DNA from: Eledone cirrhosa
Taxonomy: Eukaryota
Length of the DNA: 64,000 nt
Assembly: GCA_964016885.1 (NCBI GenBank)
Contig: OZ024740.1
Location: 24,242,001 to 24,306,000, forward strand
Reading direction: 5' to 3'
Shown here in pieces: positions 5,881 to 59,238 of this stretch. Position numbers and translations under genes: made by a program. Position 1 is the first letter of the stretch, and each line of letters begins with the position of its first letter. Below the pieces are notes generated by a model, which made no database searches, was not told the DNA's origin, and saw only the letters and a program-made list of their open reading frames with translations.

Positions 5881-5992
5881 TGCTTACAAGTGTTTCCACG
5901 GTGGTACTGCAGCCTAGTTCCGCTACGTGCAAATTCACAAGTACTTGCAGAACTCGAATATCCAATGCTGTGACCACTGTTTCCTCAGAGCA
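5881..5992 (-). ncRNA. Type I HHR with ~85-nt extended stem II
   Basis: TGCT-CTGAGGA-[ACAGTGGT..CAGC..AGTTCTGC...GCGGAACT..GCTG..ACCACCGT]-GAAA-CACTTG-TA|AGCA. Sense to the ORF. Confidence 0.8.
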
Positions 5993-6487: not shown

Positions 6488-7686
6488 TTAAGTTATTTTA
6501 TAGTGAGAGAATTTAGTTTTTAGTTTGTGGTTGCAGTATAATGATCGTTCAATTCTATCGTTAAGTAGTTTGTTTTTGGATTTTAATATGTAAAATAGCT
6601 CAAGGTTACATAACCTGCAGTACTTCAATCCACTCCGATATGCACTTGCGCTGGAAAGTATATCCCATTTTAAGGTGAACTGTTGGTTGTGTTCACGGAG
6701 TTGCCAGGTCTTGTTGGCGAGCGTGGTCACAAAACGGTGATTCGGATGTTTGATTGAGAATCGATGACGGTACCAGCGAGATTTAAACGATGTGGTGGTA
6801 GATCCGATATAATACCATTTCTGGTCGTTCGATTCAACCGTGCATTGGTAAACAATGTTGGACTTTAGGCATTCATTCTGCAATGGACATCTTTCAGGTA
6901 GATGGCAGTTACATTCTTTGTTGTGGGTAGCGGGTATACCATGGATAGTTTGTGATAGCGGTACAGGTGGGTTGTGTAATACCCGTCTCCCATTTAGTGG
7001 TTGGGAGGCAGATATTGCGTTCTGCCCATCTGTTACTAAAATGTTTTGTTTTGTAGAGTTGTTTAATTGCCTTAAGTTAAGTTTTTTTATGTATGCTTCA
7101 AGGTTTGGTGCCGTGGAGTATGATAGTCTAATAGTTTTAGTGTTCAGAATTTTGCTGTATTTATGGGAACTAGGGAAGTGTTTGTTGATTAATTTAAAGA
7201 ATGAAAGAGATAGTTTTGTACTAATCGAGGCATTAAAAATAGGATTGTACCAGATATACTTTCTACAACGTGATTTATTTGGTGGTGATCTTCTATTATT
7301 AGTATGTCTGGTAGTACTGTGTGTGTGTGCTTGTGTTTTAGTCCCCCGGTTACGTATACCTTGATTTCGTGTAGAGCTATGTGTGTTGTGGAAATTCCTA
7401 TCGATGTATTCTATTGTATCCCGGTGGTCAGCATTCCTTAATGCATTATTGTAGTATTCAGCATGTTCACTAAAAATATCAGAGTTAGACGATAGGCGAG
7501 AGATTCTAAGAGAAATACTCCGGGGAACTGATTTGATCATGGAGAGTGGGTGGTTAGAGTTAAAGTTAATATACGTAAGGTTCTCATTTACCTTGTGGAA
7601 GGGTCGTATCTGTCCGGTATTTAAATTAAGAGTTACGTCCAGAAAGTTTACTACTTTAAGATTGTATTCGTATGTTATTTTGTATT
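6488..7686 (-). pseudogene. Naiad-type PLE RT thumb plus GIY-YIG, 5'-truncated
   Basis: VVNFLDVTL...IWYNP...CNCHLPERCPLQNEC..NIVY..YYIGST..FKSRW..CRLCNLE..LLND..CNH. Confidence 0.9.
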
Positions 7687-7780
7687 CGTAGCGGAACTAG
7701 GCTGCAGTACCACCGTGGAAACACTTGTAAGCACACGGAATAAATTACCTTTTTATGATGTCTACCTGTTATTATTCATT

Positions 7781-22801: not shown

Positions 22802-22922
22802 TTATTGACACGTGTTTCTATAACAGTTACATAACCTGAAAACAGCTGCTATCTACAAAGTTTTAGTTATGCAGACATTCAATATTTCAATGTTATTATT
22901 TACTGTCATTTCATCAGAATAA
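22802..22922 (-). ncRNA. Type I HHR with 92-nt branched stem II (inverted copy)
   Basis: Reverse complement of 24548-24668. Confidence 0.85.
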
Positions 22923-24547: not shown

Positions 24548-24668
24548 TTATTCTGATGAAATGACAGTAAATAATAACATTGAAATATTGAATGTCTGCA
24601 TAACTAAAACTTTGTAGATAGCAGCTGTTTTCAGGTTATGTAACTGTTATAGAAACACGTGTCAATAA
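24548..24668 (+). ncRNA. Type I HHR with 92-nt branched stem II
   Basis: TTATT-CTGATGA-[ATGACAGT..ACATT/AATGT..GCATAAC/GTTATGT..ACTGTTAT]-GAAA-CACGTG-TC|AATAA. Confidence 0.85.
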
Positions 24669-33246: not shown

Positions 33247-33308
<62 letters not shown>

Positions 33309-33569
33309 GGAAAAATGAAACGAAATTTCATCTGCCACTCTTAGTACAGCTGTTACTTAAATATAAGTATGTACACGTACATACATATATATATACAGAC
33401 GTACAGTAGTATGTATATGTATATACATACATGCACACATATATATATGTACGTATGGATTCACCGAACATTTATTATAATGCTCGGGTTGTTTGTAAAC
33501 AAACATCTCGTATTAGGCCGTCGTGTCTAGCAACCATCGTTGCTCGTTTGTTCAACACTGAAAAAGGAA

Positions 33570-33610
33570 CGCTGTACTAGTTTCAAGCTTATTAGCTATC
33601 GTCAGTAACG
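33570..33610 (-). ncRNA. Minimal type I HHR (inverted arm)
   Basis: CGTTA-CTGACGA-TAGC-TAATAA-GCTT-GAAA-CTAG-TA|CAGCG. Confidence 0.75.
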
Positions 33611-34057
33611 TATACCTACCTGCAAGATTGTTGAACGTTGAAGACGATAGCTAATAAGCTTGAAACTAGTACAGCGTTCCTTTGTCAGTGTTGAACAAAC
33701 GAGCAACGATGGTTGCTAGACACTACGGCTTAATACGGGATGTTTGTTTACAAACACGCCGAGCATTATAATAAATGTTCGGTGAATCCATACGTACATA
33801 TATATATATGTGTGCATGTATGTATATATATATACATACTACTGTACGTCTGTATACATATATGTATGTACGTATACATACTTATATTTAAGTAACAGCC
33901 GTACTAAGAGTGGGAAATGAAATTTCGTTTCATTTTATCCGTTTATCGTTTTCGGTGCACCCGGCCAATTAACTCAATCGATATGCAAATTGGGCTACTC
34001 AGCCGTTAATATGCATAAGGTAAGTATATACGTTCAACAATCTGGCAGGAAGGTATA

Positions 34058-36795: not shown

Positions 36796-37359
36796 TAAAG
36801 CATGTCTATAGAATCACCAGATAAAATATATACCATTTCCTCTCCCAATTAGCATAATTAACTAAATAAAATATCGAATAGACCAGGCTATAAGAATAAG
36901 GCTTCTATGAAGAAATCTCCAACAAATAACCGAAACTAGCCCTTCGCGTCGGCCGCCACGGAATATTTATCGAATATTTCGACATCGTAATCGCCCAGAT
37001 ACAGTCAATTAAACAAAATTAGGTGTAAAATAAACTAGGAGAAAATAGAATACATTTATTTACCTCTAGCATGGTTTCGTCCGCATTTTGAGATTTCCAA
37101 TAACTTTGGAACTCGAGAATCAGACTCTTCAGGAGTTTTCTCTGATCTAAACATTAAATTTTCCAAAGTGATCGCGCCAAGAATTAATTCAAAAATGGCT
37201 AAGAATCGTGACGTAGCAGCGGTCAGGTTGGAAGGGATGTGGTAGTTGCTTACGGCTGGTGGGTTTTTGCTAGAAAGCACAGCACAATACAGCCAAATTT
37301 GTATCTCAACCTAATGGGTGATTATTACATATAAATGTTTCATATATATATATACATAC

Positions 37360-37646
37360 ATACATATACGTGTTTTGCAACGGGTAAATTTGTGGCTCAA
37401 TGAAAAGTTAATAAATTAAATAATCAGAGCTATATATCATAAAACATGTCGATAGAATCACCAGATAAAATATATACCATTTCCTCTTCCAATTAGCATA
37501 ATTATGCTAATTGGGAGAGGAAATGGTATATATTTTATCTGGTGATTCTATCGACATGTTTTATGATATATAGCTCTGATTATTTAATTTATTAACTTTT
37601 CATTGAGCCACAAAGTGACGCGTTGCAAAACACGTATATGTATATA
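37360..37646. repeat. Near-perfect palindrome with no spacer (centre 37501/37502)
   Basis: ...CAATTAGCATAA|TTATGCTAATTG... The arm is also present as a direct copy at ~36793-36860. Confidence 0.9.
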
Positions 37647-38277
37647 TGTATATATATATATATGTAAACCTTTATATATATATATATATATATAACGAAG
37701 GAAATGTGGTAAGGAACCAGGTGGACCATAACGCACCAAAGTACTCAATACTTGAGGTAGTAGAGTGGGTAATAGGAACCTTTTGGCCCCTTTTGTTGAC
37801 CCGTCACCGTATCATTTACGTACTTATACCTCTTAAAAGGGTCCTTGCCTAATTCGTCCCACCTAGTTCTTTTACTTATTTCGTTATTTCTTTATTTATT
37901 TATTTCTTTACTTCTTTCTTTCTTTCTTTATTTTATTCTAGCCTAACAATAGCCTGAGACCTAGGTCGTAGAATTTAATTTACTTTACTTTTTTCTTTAC
38001 ACTTATTTGCTTTTCTTCACTCTCAGTACTTTTTCTTTCCTATTTCTACCCCCCATTGTTCTACCTACCGTTCCGACTTCCTCCCCCTCCCCCTCCCCTG
38101 TATCTTCTTTGACCTAATGCCCAGCTGTAGCTGGCACTACCAACGCTGGATTGGGTCTACTCCACCCCCTCCCCTCTTTCTCCTACTGGCAGGTTTAGCC
38201 ACCATCTCCCCTACTAATTTGCAACCACAGAATTACTACTGATTTTTGACAATCACTTTGACCATATATGGAATTAC

Positions 38278-38866: not shown

Positions 38867-39133
38867 CACGCACTCATACGTACAGACACGTATATATATA
38901 TATATATTCAAGCCGTCGGGGTCTTGAACGTTTTTCTATTTACCACTCTACTACCCTAAGTATTGAGTAGTCTGGTGCGTTACGGTCCACCTGCTTCCTT
39001 ACCACACTTCCTTCGTTATATATATATATATATATATATAAATATATATATATAACAAAGGAATTGTGGTAAGGAACCAGATGGACCATAACGCACCAGA
39101 GTACTCAATACTTAGGGTAGTAGAGTGGTAAAT

Positions 39134-39288
39134 AGGAAAAAGTATGACCCCGACGGCAGAGCTCAAGCCGCTTCGACGGCTATTTCTAGACTAAAATTAG
39201 AATTTTTAGCCTGGTGAATAAATGCTAATTTTAGTCCAGAAATAGCCGTCGAAACGGCTTGAGCTCTGCCGTCGGGGTCATACTTTTT

Positions 39289-45533: not shown

Positions 45534-45614
<81 letters not shown>

Positions 45615-45658
45615 TAAACAAATAATGAATAAACAATTCCTTATATTAAACATAAAAA

Positions 45659-45813
45659 TTCATTATTTAACGATCGTTTCTAGGGTATATATGTGTTATA
45701 ATTGGTATGCATATTCAACAGATCTATGTACAAAATTATACAAAATTATACAAATTATCAAGATTAAATATACATACCTAACACATATATACGCCGTCTT
45801 CAGAAATAATGAA
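45659..45813 (-). ncRNA. Type I HHR with 116-nt rod-like stem II (3' pLTR)
   Basis: Reverse complement of 57467-57621. Confidence 0.88.
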
Positions 45814-46638
45814 GTATATTTATTGATAATAACAACAATTCAAAATATCAGTTCAAAATTGACCAATGAAAACACAAAAGGGTTAAAAGCAGTTCGGTGT
45901 GTGTATATACATGTAAAATCCTTACACATATTTTACAAAAATGTGTGTATAATTTGTATACGCATACTAAAAAGATGGATGCAAACACAAAATTTCAAGG
46001 TTAATATCTCTGTAAGCTTAATGCGCTGATAAGATGCGCATTGATACTTATGGAGTCAAGCATATAAATATATTTTTTCATACTCACACATATCAGTATA
46101 ATCACACATACATGCGCGTATATGCATAAATATACACATAACCACGAACATACAAACACACACACTCCCCCACTCACATTTATATATGTGGATATAAAAT
46201 CATAAGCACATAGAAATTAAATCACTCACATAAAACACTGGCACACACATTTCAAGATCAAGATACAGAAATTAGGTGGGAGGGGGGGAGGGGTCAGTAT
46301 TCAATTGTCTGAGCAGACTGCCTAATATAAATGTATCTATAAATTAAGAAAAATAAAAAAAATAAAACAATAAAATATAATAACTATAATATAATATATA
46401 TACACATACAGATATATAAACACACATACATACATGTACGCACACATAGAGATATTTACGCATACACCCATACACACATACATATACAGTCATACACACA
46501 CATACACTTACACGAACATACACATACACATATAAAAAGATATATATATACACACACACACACGCGCAACACATACACACATACACATATATATAAAAAA
46601 AATAGATAATAAAGATATATATCCCTATATATATAAAT

Positions 46639-46687
<49 letters not shown>

Positions 46688-47010
46688 TATATACATACAT
46701 ATACATATACATACACATACATCTAAATATACATACACATACATACACACATACATGTACATACATGTACATACATATGCACCTACTTATACTCATATAT
46801 ATAAATACATACGCTTCCATAAATGTGTATATACATAAAAAACAATACAACCTCACCAAACTCAGACATACAAATAAAGATAATAATAAAAAATAATAAT
46901 AAAAAGGCATATGTATATACATACACACACGCATTAATAGATATATATATATATATATACACATACATACACATATATATATACATACACACACACATAT
47001 ATACACACAC

Positions 47011-47051
<41 letters not shown>

Positions 47052-47061
47052 CACATAGACT

Positions 47062-47098
<37 letters not shown>

Positions 47099-47547
47099 AT
47101 ATATATCCACACACACATACCACCATAAAAACACATACAAACACCCACATGTATATATATTTATATATATATATATCCATATACACACACGTACATATAT
47201 ATACATATATATACATACATATATATATATACACACACACACATAAAAAACAGACATGCACATATATATATATATATATATATATTTTATTACTCTTATA
47301 TATACACATATTATATATACATACACAACCTCACTTATACACATATACACATAAGTTATATTATAATAATAAAGAATAATATACATATATATATATACAT
47401 ATACATATATATATATGTATATATATACATACATACATACACATACATACATACACATAAACATATACATACATAAATACATACATACTAATAAAGACAT
47501 ATATTCACACATAGACACCTATATATATATATATATATATATATATC

Positions 47548-47598
<51 letters not shown>

Positions 47599-48748
47599 AC
47601 ACACACACACACACACAGACACACATACACACTCACATATATATATATATATATATGTGTATGTGTGTGTGCGCACATACACATATATACACACACACAT
47701 ACAAACACACACAAACACATACATATGCATACGTGCACACACACACACATATATCACATAGATACGAAGATAAACATATAAATAGAGAGACATACATATA
47801 TATACACAACACACATACACATACATACATACACGCATATACATATACATACATATATACACATATATATATTCATATATATACAAGCATACACATACAT
47901 ACACATATATACACATACATACACATATACATACAACACATTCACATACACACACATATATAATGCATATATATACATATATATACATACATATGTATGT
48001 ACAATCATATATACACACACAATCTTACATTCATATTTGCATGCTCATATATGTATTTCTATATTTAGATATAAATACCCAAACCTATATAGACACCTAC
48101 CTACATATATATTCATACATAGACGCTTACAAATACAGATGATAATAGTATGGGGGAAAGGGGGGGTTTGGAGAAGGGGATCAAAGTAAATATATGTTTC
48201 AAGAAACATATAATATTTTCCGTATCTTAATTCAATGTATGTTCTTACATACTTTCAGTGCTAGGAAATACGAAATCTATGCATCTCAAAATAAATAAGT
48301 ATACCATTAATCATATGCTAACTAAACCAAAGATAGCCAACATATTGATTTCTAAGGTGTAAATTAGTTAGGTTTATAATATTTGAAGCAGAATTTTGAA
48401 GTCAAACAGTAGTAGATTATTAATTACAGTATAACTAAATTAAAGTTAATAACGTTATGGTATCAATATTAGGAGATGAATTTAGTAATAGGGAAAAGAA
48501 ACCCAAATAAAAATAAAATAAAATAAAGTATTACATCGGTAGTAGCATATAAATTATATGTTAACTAAATTAAAAATTATATATTTATTACAATAGTATA
48601 CGTTAATTAGTATATGTTAATTAGGTATACAATACATAAAGCAGATATTGTATTTCATCAATAGCATAATATAATTATATGCAAATAGAAATCAAAATTA
48701 ATACGCATACATATACATATACATACACACACACATATACATACATAT

Positions 48749-48789
<41 letters not shown>

Positions 48790-49324
48790 CACATATACAC
48801 ATACATACATACATACAGATACACATACACAACACACACATATACATACACATATACATATACATATCTTTTTCAAAAAATTGCACAGAATATATTAACT
48901 AGGTATATATCCAAAACACATCCCATTCTATGATTACATGACATTCTGCAATTCGTCTGTATAAGGATACTAATTTTAAGCAAATTAAAATTAAAATTTT
49001 TAGGTTGATTAAAACTAAAACCAAATAATAAATATATTTCCAAAATGTATATTAATTATGTCTATAATACTAAAAATTATTTCTCCGTCATTGGAAACAT
49101 GATATTATTTTGCTATATTTTATCTGTAAAAGAATTATAATAAAAGGTTTAAATAAATTAAAATTAATCTATAAATTAAATTACTAAGTATATATTAGTA
49201 ATATTTAAAGGTTTTTCACAATTTATGATTACATAATATTTTCTCATCTGTAATAAAATATTAATTAAATTAAATTTATAGGTTAACTAACATTTAAATT
49301 AAATTAATTTCTAGAATAATGTTA

Positions 49325-51766
49325 TTAATTAGGTTTATAATATTTAAATGTTTTTTTTAGTTTATGATTACACGATATAATTAATTCCTGTCGTTTATTT
49401 AATAAGATATCCTTAGACTTCATTATTTCAAATAGTTCTTGGGAACATAATCTACATTCCTTTCTATTATTTTGATAAGGGGTGGCTCTTTTGAGCACAC
49501 TCCAGGTCAAATCATATTTTATATTCTTATTTTTATAACTATTAATTTTTTCTGCTAGAGATGTTGTATTAGCCAGTGCGGCATTTTTAAAACTATGCTT
49601 GTGGGTATTAAACCTTGTCTTAAAATTGTTAGAGGTAGCTCCTATATATGAGCAAATAGAATCTTTAGTTTTAACATTACATTTATAGACTATGTTGTTA
49701 ACAAGACAATTCCCTTTTAATGGGCAGTTTGTTTTGTTTCTACAGTTACATCCTTTCGTTAATTCTGTATTTGAGGAGATATTATTGTTAATTTGATGTA
49801 CTGGTGGTATACTTATGGTTTTCTTACATTTATATGCATTATATGCACTTATATTTTGTTTTATGTTATTTGTTGTAGAGTATGAGAATTTAACTGTAGA
49901 CCTATTTAAGATTTGATGGTATTTGTGGTTTGGCGGGAAGTTTTTCTCAAGGATATAAAAAAATTTTTTAGCAATATTATCCTTAACTTGTAAATTAAAA
50001 GGAGCATTATACCAAGTAACTCGTCTATTACGGTTTCTATGTTGTTTATTATTTTTATTATTTTTATAGGTTGTATCATGATTTTTACTAGGAGGATTAA
50101 TGTTAATGATCTCACCACAACTATTTTTAGTTATATTTGTAGATTTAGGTGTTTTATCTTTTTTATTAGGAGTTTTATTATTAATATTTATTATAGTTGT
50201 ATGATGAGTAGTTTTTTGAGGGTTACTATACTTTATATTAGAAGATTTAGTATTTTGGGGTATATTGTGGGTGGCATTTAGGTGTGTACTTTTCATTTGG
50301 TGTTTGTTGGTAATATTATGCTGTATGCTTTCAGTATTTTTAGTAGAAGGTATATACTCTAATCTATTTTTGTGGCCACTTCTATCTAGAGCTTCATTAT
50401 AAAAGGTCGCATTTTTATCAAATACATCTTGGTTAGAAGAAAGGTTAGAAATTCTAAGTGATATATTATATGCAAGGTTTTTAAGGATAGATTTAGGGTG
50501 ATTAGATTGTGAGTGTATGTAATGTAAGTTTTGGTTAGGTTTATGGTAAGGTTGGTATATACCCGTAGCTAAATCTAAAGTTATATCTAGGAAATTTACT
50601 ACTTTACTTGTTTTTTCAAAAGTAATATTAAGATTATAATAGTCTTTAAGGAAAGTTCTAATATGTTTTTTGTTTTTTTCGATTTCTGAAAGGCTAAGGT
50701 TGTTAGAAAGAAGAAGACAGTCATCACGATATAAACCACCTTTGAGGTGGGGAAAAGAGGCATTTATGTTGAAAAGGAGAAAGAGGCCCACAAGATCAGT
50801 AATTTGGGCGGAATCGCTTGAACCCATAGTAATATCAAAAAGATTACTGTATGTGTTTCTGGTCCAGTATTCATTCTGAAATTCAATAAGTGTTAGTCTA
50901 GCATGTGTAATAATGTTAATGTCATCCGAAGTTAAATTAGATCTATTTTTAGCAAATATTAATGCTTTGTTCAGGAGTATAGGTGATATAGAAGAATAGT
51001 AATTATCTATATCAAATTGTAGGAAAGAAGCAGAAGATTTACACCTAATATTTTTAAACCAGTTAATTACCTGGGAGGTGTTTTCCCAGAGTGGTAAAAT
51101 AACGTGTTTTCTTATTTGTGGGATGACTCTATCTAAAATTTTTTTGCTAATTATTCCAATATCTGATTTGGAGGGACATATAAGTCTAATAGAAGGATTA
51201 GAGTTAAAGTTAGATTTGTGATCTTTCAGGTTGAAGTGTGGTCTTTTCAATGCCAAAGGTTCAGTTCTATCTTCAATGTTTAGTTTTTTTACTATGTTGT
51301 GTGTTTTGTTGTTGATGTTGGTGAGTGACACATTATTAGATTTTTTATAATTTTTTCTGAGTTCTTTATATATGAACTCATTATAATGTTCAATATCCAT
51401 ATGATACAAGTTACCAGTTTTGTCCGAGTGGACATGGATTTTTTTAGACTTTTTTAGGTCCAATAGGGTAGAATCAAGGTCCTTTTGAAAGACGGATTTA
51501 TACTTTTTAAATTTGAGGTGTTTAATTAAATTAAAAAGGTCTTTCTCGAAGTCTTCAAGTAAAAAGTTGTGTGGTGGATTCTTGTAAGTATTGAAATCAT
51601 ACATATATTTCCGATCTGCTTTTTTAGATTTCCTATCGAAGTGGTAGGCTCTCCATCTAACCCTTCTGATAAAATTATTAGTTTTCTGAATCATAAGGAG
51701 TAAGAAGTCGTCCTTAGAAGGTATTGGTATGTTTTTTAAGGAGGTTCCTAAATATTGTTTTTCCAT
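49325..51766 (-). CDS. Penelope-like (Naiad-type) reverse transcriptase / GIY-YIG endonuclease, ~813 aa
   Basis: Uninterrupted ORF from the first ATG: SLKNIPIP, DKTGN, LKDHK..P.IRLI, FDIDNYY, MGS.DSA, LYRDD, VNFLD, WYNAPF, CNCRNKTNCPLKGNC, NIVY..YIG, RF..H, CRLC..E, LLNKR.E..CNH. Confidence 0.95.
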   Translation of the reverse strand: MEKQYLGTSLKNIPIPSKDDFLLLMIQKTNNFIRRVRWRAYHFDRKSKKADRKYMYDFNTYKNPPHNFLLEDFEKDLFNLIKHLKFKKYKSVFQKDLDSTLLDLKKSKKIHVHSDKTGNLYHMDIEHYNEFIYKELRKNYKKSNNVSLTNINNKTHNIVKKLNIEDRTEPLALKRPHFNLKDHKSNFNSNPSIRLICPSKSDIGIISKKILDRVIPQIRKHVILPLWENTSQVINWFKNIRCKSSASFLQFDIDNYYSSISPILLNKALIFAKNRSNLTSDDINIITHARLTLIEFQNEYWTRNTYSNLFDITMGSSDSAQITDLVGLFLLFNINASFPHLKGGLYRDDCLLLSNNLSLSEIEKNKKHIRTFLKDYYNLNITFEKTSKVVNFLDITLDLATGIYQPYHKPNQNLHYIHSQSNHPKSILKNLAYNISLRISNLSSNQDVFDKNATFYNEALDRSGHKNRLEYIPSTKNTESIQHNITNKHQMKSTHLNATHNIPQNTKSSNIKYSNPQKTTHHTTIININNKTPNKKDKTPKSTNITKNSCGEIININPPSKNHDTTYKNNKNNKQHRNRNRRVTWYNAPFNLQVKDNIAKKFFYILEKNFPPNHKYHQILNRSTVKFSYSTTNNIKQNISAYNAYKCKKTISIPPVHQINNNISSNTELTKGCNCRNKTNCPLKGNCLVNNIVYKCNVKTKDSICSYIGATSNNFKTRFNTHKHSFKNAALANTTSLAEKINSYKNKNIKYDLTWSVLKRATPYQNNRKECRLCSQELFEIMKSKDILLNKRQELIISCNHKLKKTFKYYKPN

Positions 51767-52108
51767 TGTGATATGGATGATGGACAATTGAAAGAGCTCA
51801 ACTAAATGTATATGGGTTTACAAAATCATACATATATATATGTTTATACATAAATATAAAATTAATACACACATACAGTACAAAAATACGAATATTTCCG
51901 TGAAAATAGGAGCAAAATTATGTAGATAAATCTACCAAGAGTTTACGGTAGTGTCCAATCCGTATGAAGAACTCAATGTATTCCGGATATCATGGAAAGA
52001 AGAGATGCAATGAAAATCCACTTTCGGTGAAAGACAAACGGTATACAGAGTCAAGATAAAATATTAAACAAATAATGAATAAACAATTCCTTATATTAAA
52101 CATAAAAA

Positions 52109-52263
52109 TTCATTATTTAACGATCGTTTCTAGGGTATATATGTGTTATAATTGGTATGCATATTCAACAGATCTATGTACAAAATTATACAAAATTATA
52201 CAAATTATCAAGATTAAATATACATACCTAACACATATATACGCCGTCTTCAGAAATAATGAA
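52109..52263 (-). ncRNA. Type I HHR with 116-nt stem II (5' pLTR)
   Basis: Same sequence as 45659-45813, upstream of the ORF. Confidence 0.88.
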
Positions 52264-52624
52264 GTATATTTATTGATAATAACAACAATTCAAAATATCA
52301 GTTCAAAATTGACCAATGAAAACACAAAGGGTTAAAAGCAGTTCGGTGTGTGTATATACATGTAAAATCCTTACACATATTTTACAAAAATGTGTGTATA
52401 ATTTGTATACGCATACTAAAAAGATGGATGCAAACACAAAATTTCAAGGTTAATATCTCTGTAAGCTTAATGCGCTGATAAGATGCGCATTGATACTTAT
52501 GGAGTCAAGCATATAAATATATTTTTTCATACTCACACATATCAGTATAATCACACATACATGCGCGTATATGCATAAATATACACATAACCACGAACAT
52601 ACAAACACACACACTCCCCCACTC

Positions 52625-54317
52625 AAAAACCTTGCATATAATATATCACTTAGAATTTCTAACCTTTCTTCTAACCAAGATGTATTTGATAAAAATGCGA
52701 CCTTTTATAATGAAGCTCTAGATAGAAGTGGCCACAAAAATAGATTAGAGTATATACCTTCTACTAAAAATACTGAAAGCATACAGCATAATATTACCAA
52801 CAAACACCAAATGAAAAGTACACACCTAAATGCCACCCACAATATACCCCAAAATACTAAATCTTCTAATATAAAGTATAGTAACCCTCAAAAAACTACT
52901 CATCATACAACTATAATAAATATTAATAATAAAACTCCTAATAAAAAAGATAAAACACCTAAATCTACAAATATAACTAAAAATAGTTGTGGTGAGATCA
53001 TTAACATTAATCCTCCTAGTAAAAATCATGATACAACCTATAAAAATAATAAAAATAATAAACAACATAGAAACCGTAATAGACGAGTTACTTGGTATAA
53101 TGCTCCTTTTAATTTACAAGTTAAGGATAATATTGCTAAAAAATTTTTTTATATCCTTGAGAAAAACTTCCCGCCAAACCACAAATACCATCAAATCTTA
53201 AATAGGTCTACAGTTAAATTCTCATACTCTACAACAAATAACATAAAACAAAATATAAGTGCATATAATGCATATAAATGTAAGAAAACCATAAGTATAC
53301 CACCAGTACATCAAATTAACAATAATATCTCCTCAAATACAGAATTAACGAAAGGATGTAACTGTAGAAACAAAACAAACTGCCCATTAAAAGGGAATTG
53401 TCTTGTTAACAACATAGTCTATAAATGTAATGTTAAAACTAAAGATTCTATTTGCTCATATATAGGAGCTACCTCTAACAATTTTAAGACAAGGTTTAAT
53501 ACCCACAAGCATAGTTTTAAAAATGCCGCACTGGCTAATACAACATCTCTAGCAGAAAAAATTAATAGTTATAAAAATAAGAATATAAAATATGATTTGA
53601 CCTGGAGTGTGCTCAAAAGAGCCACCCCTTATCAAAATAATAGAAAGGAATGTAGATTATGTTCCCAAGAACTATTTGAAATAATGAAGTCTAAGGATAT
53701 CTTATTAAATAAACGACAGGAATTAATTATATCGTGTAATCATAAACTAAAAAAAACATTTAAATATTATAAACCTAATTAATAACATTATTCTAGAAAT
53801 TAATTTAATTTAAATGTTAGTTAACCTATAAATTTAATTTAATTAATATTTTATTACAGATGAGAAAATATTATGTAATCATAAATTGTGAAAAACCTTT
53901 AAATATTACTAATATATACTTAGTAATTTAATTTATAGATTAATTTTAATTTATTTAAACCTTTTATTATAATTCTTTTACAGATAAAATATAGCAAAAT
54001 AATATCATGTTTCCAATGACGGAGAAATAATTTTTAGTATTATAGACATAATTAATATACATTTTGGAAATATATTTATTATTTGGTTTTAGTTTTAATC
54101 AACCTAAAAATTTTAATTTTAATTTGCTTAAAATTAGTATCCTTATACAGACGAATTGCAGAATGTCATGTAATCATAGAATGGGATGTGTTTTGGATAT
54201 ATACCTAGTTAATATATTCTGTGCAATTTTTTGAAAAAGATATGTATATGTATATGTGTATGTATATGTGTGTGTTGTGTATGTGTATCTGTATGTATGT
54301 ATGTATGTGTATATGTG

Positions 54318-54358
<41 letters not shown>

Positions 54359-55508
54359 ATATGTATGTATATGTGTGTGTGTATGTATATGTATATGTAT
54401 GCGTATTAATTTTGATTTCTATTTGCATATAATTATATTATGCTATTGATGAAATACAATATCTGCTTTATGTATTGTATACCTAATTAACATATACTAA
54501 TTAACGTATACTATTGTAATAAATATATAATTTTTAATTTAGTTAACATATAATTTATATGCTACTACCGATGTAATACTTTATTTTATTTTATTTTTAT
54601 TTGGGTTTCTTTTCCCTATTACTAAATTCATCTCCTAATATTGATACCATAACGTTATTAACTTTAATTTAGTTATACTGTAATTAATAATCTACTACTG
54701 TTTGACTTCAAAATTCTGCTTCAAATATTATAAACCTAACTAATTTACACCTTAGAAATCAATATGTTGGCTATCTTTGGTTTAGTTAGCATATGATTAA
54801 TGGTATACTTATTTATTTTGAGATGCATAGATTTCGTATTTCCTAGCACTGAAAGTATGTAAGAACATACATTGAATTAAGATACGGAAAATATTATATG
54901 TTTCTTGAAACATATATTTACTTTGATCCCCTTCTCCAAACCCCCCCTTTCCCCCATACTATTATCATCTGTATTTGTAAGCGTCTATGTATGAATATAT
55001 ATGTAGGTAGGTGTCTATATAGGTTTGGGTATTTATATCTAAATATAGAAATACATATATGAGCATGCAAATATGAATGTAAGATTGTGTGTGTATATAT
55101 GATTGTACATACATATGTATGTATATATATGTATATATATGCATTATATATGTGTGTGTATGTGAATGTGTTGTATGTATATGTGTATGTATGTGTATAT
55201 ATGTGTATGTATGTGTATGCTTGTATATATATGAATATATATATGTGTATATATGTATGTATATGTATATGCGTGTATGTATGTATGTGTATGTGTGTTG
55301 TGTATATATATGTATGTCTCTCTATTTATATGTTTATCTTCGTATCTATGTGATATATGTGTGTGTGTGTGCACGTATGCATATGTATGTGTTTGTGTGT
55401 GTTTGTATGTGTGTGTGTATATATGTGTATGTGCGCACACACACATACACATATATATATATATATATATGTGAGTGTGTATGTGTGTCTGTGTGTGTGT
55501 GTGTGTGT

Positions 55509-55591
<83 letters not shown>

Positions 55592-56010
55592 TGTCTATGT
55601 GTGAATATATGTCTTTATTAGTATGTATGTATTTATGTATGTATATGTTTATGTGTATGTATGTATGTGTATGTATGTATGTATATATATACATATATAT
55701 ATATGTATATGTATATATATATATGTATATTATTCTTTATTATTATAATATAACTTATGTGTATATGTGTATAAGTGAGGTTGTGTATGTATATATAATA
55801 TGTGTATATATAAGAGTAATAAAATATATATATATATATATATATATGTGCATGTCTGTTTTTTATGTGTGTGTGTGTATATATATATATGTATGTATAT
55901 ATATGTATATATATGTACGTGTGTGTATATGGATATATATATATATAAATATATATACATGTGGGTGTTTGTATGTGTTTTTATGGTGGTATGTGTGTGT
56001 GGATATATAT

Positions 56011-56047
<37 letters not shown>

Positions 56048-56057
56048 AGTCTATGTG

Positions 56058-56098
<41 letters not shown>

Positions 56099-56443
56099 GT
56101 GTGTGTATATATGTGTGTGTGTATGTATATATATATGTGTATGTATGTGTATATATATATATATATCTCTATTAATGCGTGTGTGTATGTATATACATAT
56201 GCCTTTTTATTATTATTTTTTATTATTATCTTTATTTGTATGTCTGAGTTTGGTGAGGTTGTATTGTTTTTTATGTATATACACATTTATGGAAGCGTAT
56301 GTATTTATATATATGAGTATAAGTAGGTGCATATGTATGTATGATTATATATCTAATTCTATGTATGAAGGTACATCTATATATATATGTATATATACGC
56401 GTGTATGTAAGTAGTGTGTGTATGTATCTATATGTCTATGTGA

Positions 56444-56491
<48 letters not shown>

Positions 56492-56592
56492 CGATGTGCG
56501 TATATGTATGTACATGTATGTACATGTATGTGTGTATGTATGTGTATGTATATTTAGATGTATGTGTATGTATATGTATATGTATGTATATA

Positions 56593-56641
<49 letters not shown>

Positions 56642-57808
56642 ATTTATATATATAGGGATATATATCTTTATTATCTATTTTTTTTATATATATGTGTATG
56701 TGTGTATGTGTTGCGCGTGTGTGTGTGTGTATATATATATCTTTTTATATGTGTATGTGTATGTTCGTGTAAGTGTATGTGTGTGTATGACTGTATATGT
56801 ATGTGTGTATGGGTGTATGCGTAAATATCTCTATGTGTGCGTACATGTATGTATGTGTGTTTATATATCTGTATGTGTATATATATTATATTATAGTTAT
56901 TATATTTTATTGTTTTATTTTTTTTATTTTTCTTAATTTATAGATACATTTATATTAGGCAGTCTGCTCAGACAATTGAATACTGACCCCTCCCCCCCCT
57001 CCCACCTAATTTCTGTATCTTGATCTTGAAATGTGTGTGCCAGTGTTTTATGTGAGTGATTTAATTTCTATGTGCTTATGATTTTATATCCACATATATA
57101 AATGTGAGTGGGGGAGTGTGTGTGTTTGTATGTTCGTGGTTATGTGTATATTTATGCATATACGCGCATGTATGTGTGATTATACTGATATGTGTGAGTA
57201 TGAAAAAATATATTTATATGCTTGACTCCATAAGTATCAATGCGCATCTTATCAGCGCATTAAGCTTACAGAGATATTAACCTTGAAATTTTGTGTTTGC
57301 ATCCATCTTTTTAGTATGCGTATACAAATTATACACACATTTTTGTAAAATATGTGTAAGGATTTTACATGTATATACACACACCGAACTGCTTTTAACC
57401 CTTTGTGTTTTCATTGGTCAATTTTGAACTGATATTTTGAATTGTTGTTATTATCAATAAATATACTTCATTATTTCTGAAGACGGCGTATATATGTGTT
57501 AGGTATGTATATTTAATCTTGATAATTTGTATAATTTTGTATAATTTTGTACATAGATCTGTTGAATATGCATACCAATTATAACACATATATACCCTAG
57601 AAACGATCGTTAAATAATGAATTTTTATGTTTAATATAAGGAATTGTTTATTCATTATTTGTTTAATATTTTATCTTGACTCTGTATACCGTTTGTCTTT
57701 CACCGAAAGTGGATTTTCATTGCATCTCTTCTTTCCATGATATCCGGAATACATTGAGTTCTTCATACGGATTGGACACTACCGTAAACTCTTGGTAGAT
57801 TTATCTAC
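52625..57808 (+). mobile_element. Inverted 5'-truncated copy of the same Naiad
   Basis: 52625-53782 encodes the identical C-terminal ~385 aa. It mirrors 45607-50482 apart from a 171-bp indel, and extends to the equivalent of 51920. Confidence 0.95.
57467..57621 (+). ncRNA. Type I HHR with 116-nt rod-like stem II
   Basis: TTCATTATTT-CTGAAGA-[..GTATATATGTGTTA GGTATGTATATTTAA...TTGAATATGCATACC..TAACACATATATAC..]-GAAA-CGATCG-TT|AAATAATGAA. 10-bp stem I, palindromic stem III. Confidence 0.88.
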
Positions 57809-57888
57809 ATATATATATATATATATATATATGATAAAGAACACAAGAGTGTCTACAACATCAAAATATATATATATATATTTTTTCA

Positions 57889-59198: not shown

Positions 59199-59238
59199 CC
59201 GAGCTGAAGATCCGCGAAGGTGAAACAATTGTTCTCGG
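59199..59238 (+). ncRNA. Minimal type I HHR
   Basis: CCGAG-CTGAAGA-TCC-GCGAA-GGT-GAAA-CAATTG-TT|CTCGG. Confidence 0.82.

Follow-up and report, generated by a model that had tools for sequence, protein, structure and literature searches.

A 116-nt stem II in the hammerhead ribozymes of a Hydra-clade Penelope-like retrotransposon from Eledone cirrhosa

The closest described systems are the hammerheads of the Hydra clade of Penelope-like elements (PLEs), which is defined by a C-terminal endonuclease, a DKT motif, an RWK-like motif, a CxCX5C linker motif, and the CxxC and CxH motifs (Craig et al. 2021, PMC8557442). In these elements of under about 3 kb, a reverse transcriptase (RT) is followed by a GIY-YIG endonuclease, and the targets are (TA)n. 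As far as the accessible parts of that paper go, their hammerheads are of type I, lie in pseudo-LTRs, hold a palindromic stem III and often leave a base unpaired at each side of stem II, which measures about 26 nt or less in all 26 Hydra rows; U precedes the cut in 10 of the 26. The same work defines Naiads by an N-terminal endonuclease and a DKA motif. Minimal hammerheads of metazoan PLEs, described by Cervera and de la Pena (2014, PMC4209133), lie in flanking repeats and hold an extra base after A9, a palindromic helix III, a helix I of 4–5 bp, and a helix II of 7–8 bp with a conserved G10.1-C11.1 pair; they are dimer-dependent and show low activity in vitro. In viral hammerheads, what is termed a 'long helix II' spans 6–8 bp (PMC13725137).

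A protein requirement has been described for PAc, a Poseidon element of Anolis (Frangieh et al. 2024, PMC11167929), whose hammerhead cleaves only with its protein, and whose uncut RNA is the template for insertion. Reverse transcription of PAc has two starts downstream of the ribozyme (the 'tail'), and binding of the protein was assigned to the initial 172 nt of the ORF, a region not shown to be stem II. This element belongs to another clade, its ribozyme overlaps the start of the ORF, and the accessible text describes no long arm. Core halves beyond the descriptor spacing, the nearest precedents for a long stem II, have been noted in PLE-X hammerheads of spike mosses (about 50 nt, two cases) and in eight 'HHR_half_core' Naiads (35–50 nt; Craig et al. 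2021), although in the sections available these are single cases from other clades, of half the length found here, and given without fold or covariation. The discontinuous Clec2 hammerheads of mammals (PMC2950038) are likewise hidden from pattern searches by a large insertion, but the insertions there were sought in loops 1 or 3, within 3′ UTRs of host mRNAs, and not as a structured stem II in a mobile element. A search of the full-text literature, with subscription papers outside its scope, found no description of a Penelope-type hammerhead with a long stem II; accessible parts of bioRxiv 10.64898/2026.07.22.740005, PMC7229834, PMC3088659, PMC6765202, and PMC1636495 were also compared. The hammerhead described below is real and, as a structural form of an established ribozyme within an established clade of retrotransposons, apparently undescribed.

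The window analysed is a stretch of 64,000 nt from Eledone cirrhosa (contig OZ024740.1, forward-strand positions 24,242,001 to 24,306,000), and all positions refer to this stretch unless a locus is named. As a previous sequence-only reading had stated, it holds three identical hammerheads; two of these lie in the pseudo-LTRs of an intact element:

45606..49324, minus strand: microsatellite-rich 3′ UTR and 3′ pseudo-LTR (45606–46176), with a (TA)n end 63 nt past the cut site
45659..45813, minus strand: hammerhead of the 3′ pseudo-LTR, separated by 6450 nt from the 5′ copy
49325..51766, minus strand: intact 813-aa ORF with RT (RWR, DKT, YRDD), basic low-complexity linker, CxCX5C, then at the C terminus a GIY-YIG-type endonuclease with CxxC and CxH
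51919..52625, minus strand: 5′ pseudo-LTR, 707 bp identical to 57105–57811 inverted
52109..52263, minus strand: hammerhead in the 5′ pseudo-LTR, its cut site 353 nt upstream of the ATG
52622..57811, plus strand: inverted 5′-truncated copy with the 3′ part of the ORF, 3′ UTR and pseudo-LTR, and a (TA)n end 200 nt past the cut site
57467..57621, plus strand: type I hammerhead motif in this inverted unit (pattern and fold)

The ORF runs without a stop for 813 aa from the ATG, and its two copies differ at 1 of 1161 nt. Its motifs (HSDKTG, RWR, CNCRNKTNC, CRLC, and CNH) agree with the published Hydra alignment in a comparison made by eye; Pfam gave nothing significant on the ORF. Insertion at (TA)n, the pseudo-LTRs and the inverted 5′-truncated copy are further Hydra traits, and on its sequence features the element is assigned to the Hydra clade of PLEs. 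The sequence-only reading had called it a Naiad, an assignment that has to be replaced: the RT comes first and the endonuclease last, the motif is DKT and not DKA, and CxCX5C is present. Hammerheads are already known from the Hydra clade, so the element no longer poses the surprise that a ribozyme-bearing Naiad would have been. The unit of 6450 nt between ribozymes exceeds the length of Hydra elements, typically under 3 kb, although this is a typical and not a diagnostic trait. It includes a microsatellite-rich 3′ UTR of 3.5 kb and an insert rich in N, T, and K in the linker of the ORF (residues about 450–570, before an arginine-rich stretch). The linker insert is also found in proteins P0003, P0005, and P0010; in the tree described below, these three fall with the long-stem families.

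The anatomy of the hammerhead is as follows:

57467..57476, plus strand: 5′ strand of stem I, 10 bp with 57612–57621 (fold)
57477..57483, plus strand: core C3–A9, CUGAAGA (sequence)
57484..57599, plus strand: extended stem II of 116 nt, with several helices and an apical hairpin (fold and covariation)
from 57484, plus strand: base of stem II, where a C·A mismatch and then 2 bp are followed by a C·C mismatch before the 14-bp helix
57488–57501/57582–57595, plus strand: 14-bp helix of stem II
57502–57516/57562–57576, plus strand: 15-bp helix of stem II
57521..57559, plus strand: apical module, in which 3 bp (57521–23/57557–59) close an internal loop
A57524·G57556, plus strand: A·G mismatch with which the apical internal loop opens
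57600..57611, plus strand: GAAA (57600–03), palindromic stem III (self-complementary 8-mer, 57603–10) and GUU with the predicted cut after 57611 (placed by hammerhead numbering)

The CUGANGA, GAAA, and UH elements round a three-helix junction and the open helix I are those of a type I hammerhead. The whole motif has a minimum free energy of −48.2 kcal/mol (z −6.7), and none of 200 shuffled sequences was equally stable. Stem II alone folds at −44.1 in the sense strand and −28.8 in the antisense strand. Most of the structure drawn by the sequence-only reading is thus recovered, namely the 116-nt stem II in a type I hammerhead, the 10-bp stem I, the palindromic stem III, the 14-bp perfect helix, the 15-bp helix with two U-G pairs, and the strand bias of the pairing. 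Its 'perfect core' holds for the conserved nucleotides, but position 10.1/11.1 is a C·A mismatch and not an R10.1-Y11.1 pair, followed by only 2 bp and C·C. The C·A recurs in four of four subfamilies, while 35 relatives show mainly U·U (16) or G-C (13) there; this is the form of the base typical of Hydra hammerheads, in which a single letter on either side stays unpaired. The nucleotide before the cut is U in the window copy, as in part of the Hydra rows, and A in older subfamilies. Set against the minimal hammerheads of metazoan PLEs, which share the flanking repeats, the extra base after A9 and the palindromic helix III, the window element has about 45 bp in several helices in place of a short helix II, C·A in place of G10.1-C11.1, and a helix I of 10 bp; with 116 nt, it lies outside the helix II of about 4–8 bp that serves as a criterion for the minimal type. 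As regards the contact between loops I and II of fast hammerheads, the predicted fold leaves stem I uninterrupted and places no terminal loop close to the core. The core is conserved in 47 aligned copies, which were themselves picked through the core pattern, and it is very probable that hammerhead identity is under selection at 57467–57621.

An Rfam scan of the window gave no hammerhead among the 150 matches listed of 321, and a focused scan gave none among 29 matches. The earlier expectation that standard descriptors would miss so long a stem II is borne out to the extent that Rfam does miss it, but this failure is not specific to the long stem, because the ordinary 11-nt-stem hammerhead at 59204, used as a control, was missed as well. 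The tRNA scan was empty. Foldback palindromes at 38912–39157, 33303–33946, and 37323–37684, likely inverted-repeat mobile elements, gave sub-threshold matches to Rfam miRNA models.

In the 3.0-Gb assembly, searched by pattern, 100–130 nt between the core halves combined with the stem III of this family gave 10,876 matches, against 13 for a reversed control. Forty places chosen for variety among the first 100 matches listed, together with the best DNA matches, yielded 49 distinct versions with a stem II mostly of 99–126 nt, and the alignment comprises 47 of these, a longer copy and a deleted one being excluded. When the structure derived from the window is laid over this alignment, 87.5% of the cells are paired and 47 cells are changed on both sides, a result reached by none of 500 shuffles, in a control that ignores relatedness. 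Basal pairs switch between AU, GU, and GC (19:152, AU 21, GU 14, and GC 11) or between AU and GC (22:149 and 24:147, each AU 36 and GC 8), and in the most distant subfamily the basal helix is replaced wholesale and is still paired. Two of five measures do not exceed the shuffles, since the numbers of covarying pairs and of pair types were as high in 182 and 136 of 500, respectively, and RNAalifold did not recover the rod from the same gappy alignment. The base of stem II, adjoining the core, shows the strongest covariation, and the best-conserved part of the arm is the apical module, about 34 bp away from the core (97.8–98.6% paired). A much-shortened stem II was met in only 17 genomic copies, each with a different deletion.

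Covariation among genomic copies had been named beforehand as a check on the claim that stem II holds an extra conserved RNA domain, and the basal pairs do covary across subfamilies. That claim also gains from the pairing kept by compensatory changes, from the failure of any shortened variant to amplify (17 unrelated deletions against 10,876 full-length matches), and from an internal-loop motif, described below, that recurs in unrelated families. A covariance model of the window family found the three window copies and placed other families at or near the scores of microsatellite hairpins; none of the 35 metagenome loci given to it was listed.

Several features of the copies are recorded in their own right. 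Sequence from about 20 nt upstream of the core is absent in 24 of 43 pattern-picked copies (L031–L070), many of which stop within the 5′ strand of stem I, frequently in inverted pairs set back to back; similarly close pairs occur in short-stem families. In several unlinked copies (L039, L046–L048, L054, L093, and L138), stem I directly adjoins one and the same other repeat, which suggests a preferred target or a chimeric subfamily. Contigs from two runs with two other organism labels (X5 and X6) span this long stem II and show few differences from it.

Long stems are not confined to this family. Spacers of 39–69 nt gave 9,881 matches in the genome (control 437), those of 70–100 nt 6,884 (control 91), and those of 95–125 nt with other stem III sequences 2,909 (control 203), so that all spacers of 39–130 nt account for about 30,000 pattern matches, not checked singly and with slight overlap. 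The short-stem pattern gave 17,411 (control 3,151), and spacers of 127–157 nt gave 1,128 against a control of 280, with no clear new family among the 100 matches listed. The other families have a stem II of 44–100 nt, for an overall range of 44–126 nt, and representatives of the long-stem families fold as rods, except for one branched family (Z). Three further sets lie in the window itself:

24553–24663, plus strand, and 22807–22917, minus strand: second Hydra-clade family, present as an inverted pair, its stem II 92 nt long and holding two A·G loops
5885–5988, minus strand: third family, with an 85-nt stem II and an ORF remnant at 6488–7696, minus strand
59204–59233 (plus), 58097 (minus), 34063 (plus), and 33605 (minus): short-stem hammerhead cores (11 and 14 nt)

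The second family has a full unit of 3.56 kb at locus L071, whose RT is 53% identical to the 813-aa ORF of the window. The branched family, with a stem II of 95–96 nt (L218–L227, L236, and L237), often forms tandem units of about 990 or 740 nt, has an endonuclease remnant upstream of the hammerhead at L221, and may include retrozyme-like non-autonomous repeats. Locus L237 also holds, on its minus strand (594–2484), a non-LTR retrozyme-like array of seven tandem units of 310 nt that each contain a hammerhead with a 14-nt stem.

Among 77 loci of relatives from metagenome contigs, hammerheads were found in 54, every one with a stem II of 10–25 nt in a scan that allowed up to 200 nt. A tree of the C-terminal part from 25 loci splits the long-stem families and three database proteins from short-stem relatives with support 100, and a second one from 16 loci places the genome's own 11-nt-stem family on the short-stem side with support 97. 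Both trees were rooted at the midpoint and built from partial sequences, and their inner nodes are weak; what they indicate is therefore a trait of a sub-lineage and not a proven single origin; the 57–63-nt families were left out because the ORF beside a 62-nt-stem copy belonged to another family. From these sequences, the long stem II appears to be a trait of one sub-lineage and widespread in it. Short-stem families thrive in the same genome, and the arm is consequently not needed by the clade as a whole.

The internal loop of the apical module recurs among the long stems. The motif, which was defined after looking at these sequences, consists of a Watson-Crick pair followed by A·G, then by G, A, or U opposite A, and then by U, within 2 kcal/mol of the fold; it was tabulated by script because MAFFT did not align it across families. 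It is present in 18 of 31 representative long stems, compared with 1 of 31 antisense and 2 of 31 reversed sequences, counts in which representatives within a group are related, and it is missing in the other 13, including the branched family. In a second group, it occurs twice, 10–12 nt apart, in nine of nine representatives, and its closing pairs switch between C-G and U-A, although forcing the loop costs 5.7–6.6 kcal/mol in two of the nine. Its distance from the core varies from 13 to 41 nt, and it is shared by groups that have no other common sequence. Purine-purine internal loops are known protein contacts in other RNAs. SECIS elements and kink-turns require tandem sheared pairs, with GA on both strands, and a particular helix or bulge geometry, and SECIS elements also an in-frame UGA; both were rejected here, since each strand of the loop shows AG instead and no in-frame UGA occurs in the ORF. 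A mirtron reading of stem II was ruled out by geometry.

The surroundings of the hammerhead bear on how it would operate. Direct repeats with the hammerhead flank the ORF, and the palindromic stem III permits a dimer; two copies are predicted to co-fold through it as a double hammerhead, 14.8 kcal/mol better than two monomers. Two features flank the motif:

57612..57660, plus strand: 3′ strand of stem I and a second copy of its partner (57651–57660), a predicted alternative hairpin competing with stem I
57456..57461, plus strand: AAUAAA upstream of stem I

Once the downstream sequence is added, the predicted probability of stem I falls from 0.98 to 0.03. The competing hairpin reaches 0.84–0.94 in three of four subfamilies and 0.52 in the fourth, and exceeds 0.6 in none of the 14 other families folded. 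The 3′ ends of the insertions lie past the cut site in 47 copies: 12 at 60–69 nt, 22 at 195–204 nt (34 of 47 at one of these two places) and 6 near 290 nt, while 7 run on. The template would therefore span the cut site, as in the anole element, and the proposal that stem II is a priming hairpin finds no support, as these ends, at which reverse transcription would begin about 63 and 200 nt downstream of the cut, lie outside it. Two contigs diverge 2–3 nt from the predicted cut site, a weak observation from single contigs.

The best explanation, with a probability of roughly 45%, is that the RNA would be cleaved slowly at 57611 with the assistance of a dimer and likely of a protein, stem II being the docking arm for that protein. 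Most plausibly, the docked protein would be the element's own RT-endonuclease, and RT binding would be the likeliest of the functions that the sequence-only reading had offered for stem II. Through the palindromic stem III, two copies would pair, whether they lie in tandem on one transcript or on separate transcripts. The C·A at the base of stem II and the lack of a loop II near the core would make unaided cleavage slow, as in other Penelope-type hammerheads, and the purine-purine internal loop of the arm (A·G, then R·A) would contact the protein. Transcription past 57660 would allow the competing hairpin to open stem I and leave uncut RNA, on which reverse transcription would start just 3′ of this hairpin (+63) or at +200 and copy back through the ribozyme. 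PAc shares the two starts downstream of the ribozyme; its protein-assisted cleavage and uncut template are described, whereas for the window element both are proposals. A bolder version, which we consider rather unlikely, is that stem II is a conserved protein-binding domain with an A·G module throughout one Hydra sub-lineage and forms, together with the anti-stem-I hairpin, a protein-gated switch between a self-cleaving and a template state; about 30,000 such ribozymes would then have gone unseen in one genome because descriptors cap stem II.

The main rival to the docking arm, tenable although somewhat unlikely, is that stem II is the one place where the hammerhead takes extra sequence, so that selection asks only that it folds back and the arm has no job. 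The spread of lengths, the coexistence of rods and a branched form, the bloating of the element elsewhere (its 3′ UTR and linker insert), the 10-nt unit repeated in the apical loop of the window subfamily, and the concentration of covariation next to the core would all be expected from it. It does not account for the position of the most conserved part of the arm, about 34 bp from the core, nor for an A·G loop recurring in groups without other common sequence or the fact that none of the 17 shortened variants was amplified. An improbable alternative for the window family is a switch between polyadenylation and read-through, in which the GU-rich 5′ arm of stem II would be a downstream poly(A) element, hidden by folding so that read-through to the template follows. 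GU-rich elements are downstream poly(A) signals, and in the window family AAUAAA lies just upstream of the ribozyme in four of four subfamilies and downstream in none, whereas among 21 other families of the genome it lies downstream in 18 and upstream in none (a count that omits two mis-parsed rows), and among 35 relatives downstream in 16 and upstream in 2. The long stems of the other families are, however, left unexplained by such a switch.

Two more readings give the arm a task in RNA processing. According to one of them, which is very unlikely, stem II holds a short spliceosomal intron of 54 nt, from GUAUGU at 57503 to UAG at 57556. All four subfamilies retain a donor-like, a branch-like, and a U-rich YAG motif, YAG is found in nine of nine representatives of the second group, and Penelope of D. 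virilis has an intron that ends at helix I (PMC4209133, accessible part). Nevertheless, the spliced form appears in none of the 17 shortened genomic copies, although these elements are known to keep introns, and the joint is absent from contigs of four sequencing runs of unknown kind; moreover, the same loop reads GAG and not YAG in the 57–63-nt families, the GU facing the acceptor is exchanged, along with its partner, for AC or GC, and the length would be just 42–64 nt. Least probable of all is a rod that Dicer would process like a pre-miRNA or that ADAR would edit so as to tune cleavage, both options of the sequence-only reading. In their favour are the two adjacent AU-rich helices of 14 and 15 bp, together with several pairs that vary between U-A and U-G among subfamilies. 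The ADAR part of this suggestion finds no counterpart in the stem II of 83 genomic copies, some of which are not independent, where A>G changes are not in excess (10 singletons against 12 T>C, and 8 shared changes against 5). Many families also lack a long perfect helix, one is branched, and no Rfam miRNA model overlaps stem II.

The role of PLE hammerheads is described as open in the accessible parts of two papers (PMC8557442 and PMC7761336). A young intact element with a separable, covarying arm, and with short-armed relatives of the same genome as natural controls, makes this role testable in an existing in vitro system. Descriptor-based counts miss a large class, comprising about 30,000 pattern matches, not checked singly, with 39–130 nt between the core halves, which suggests that elements reported without hammerheads, such as the 'half-core' Naiads, deserve re-examination. 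Even if the arm were merely a tolerated insertion, nature would still have supplied an example of a hammerhead whose stem II has a large structured domain grafted onto it.
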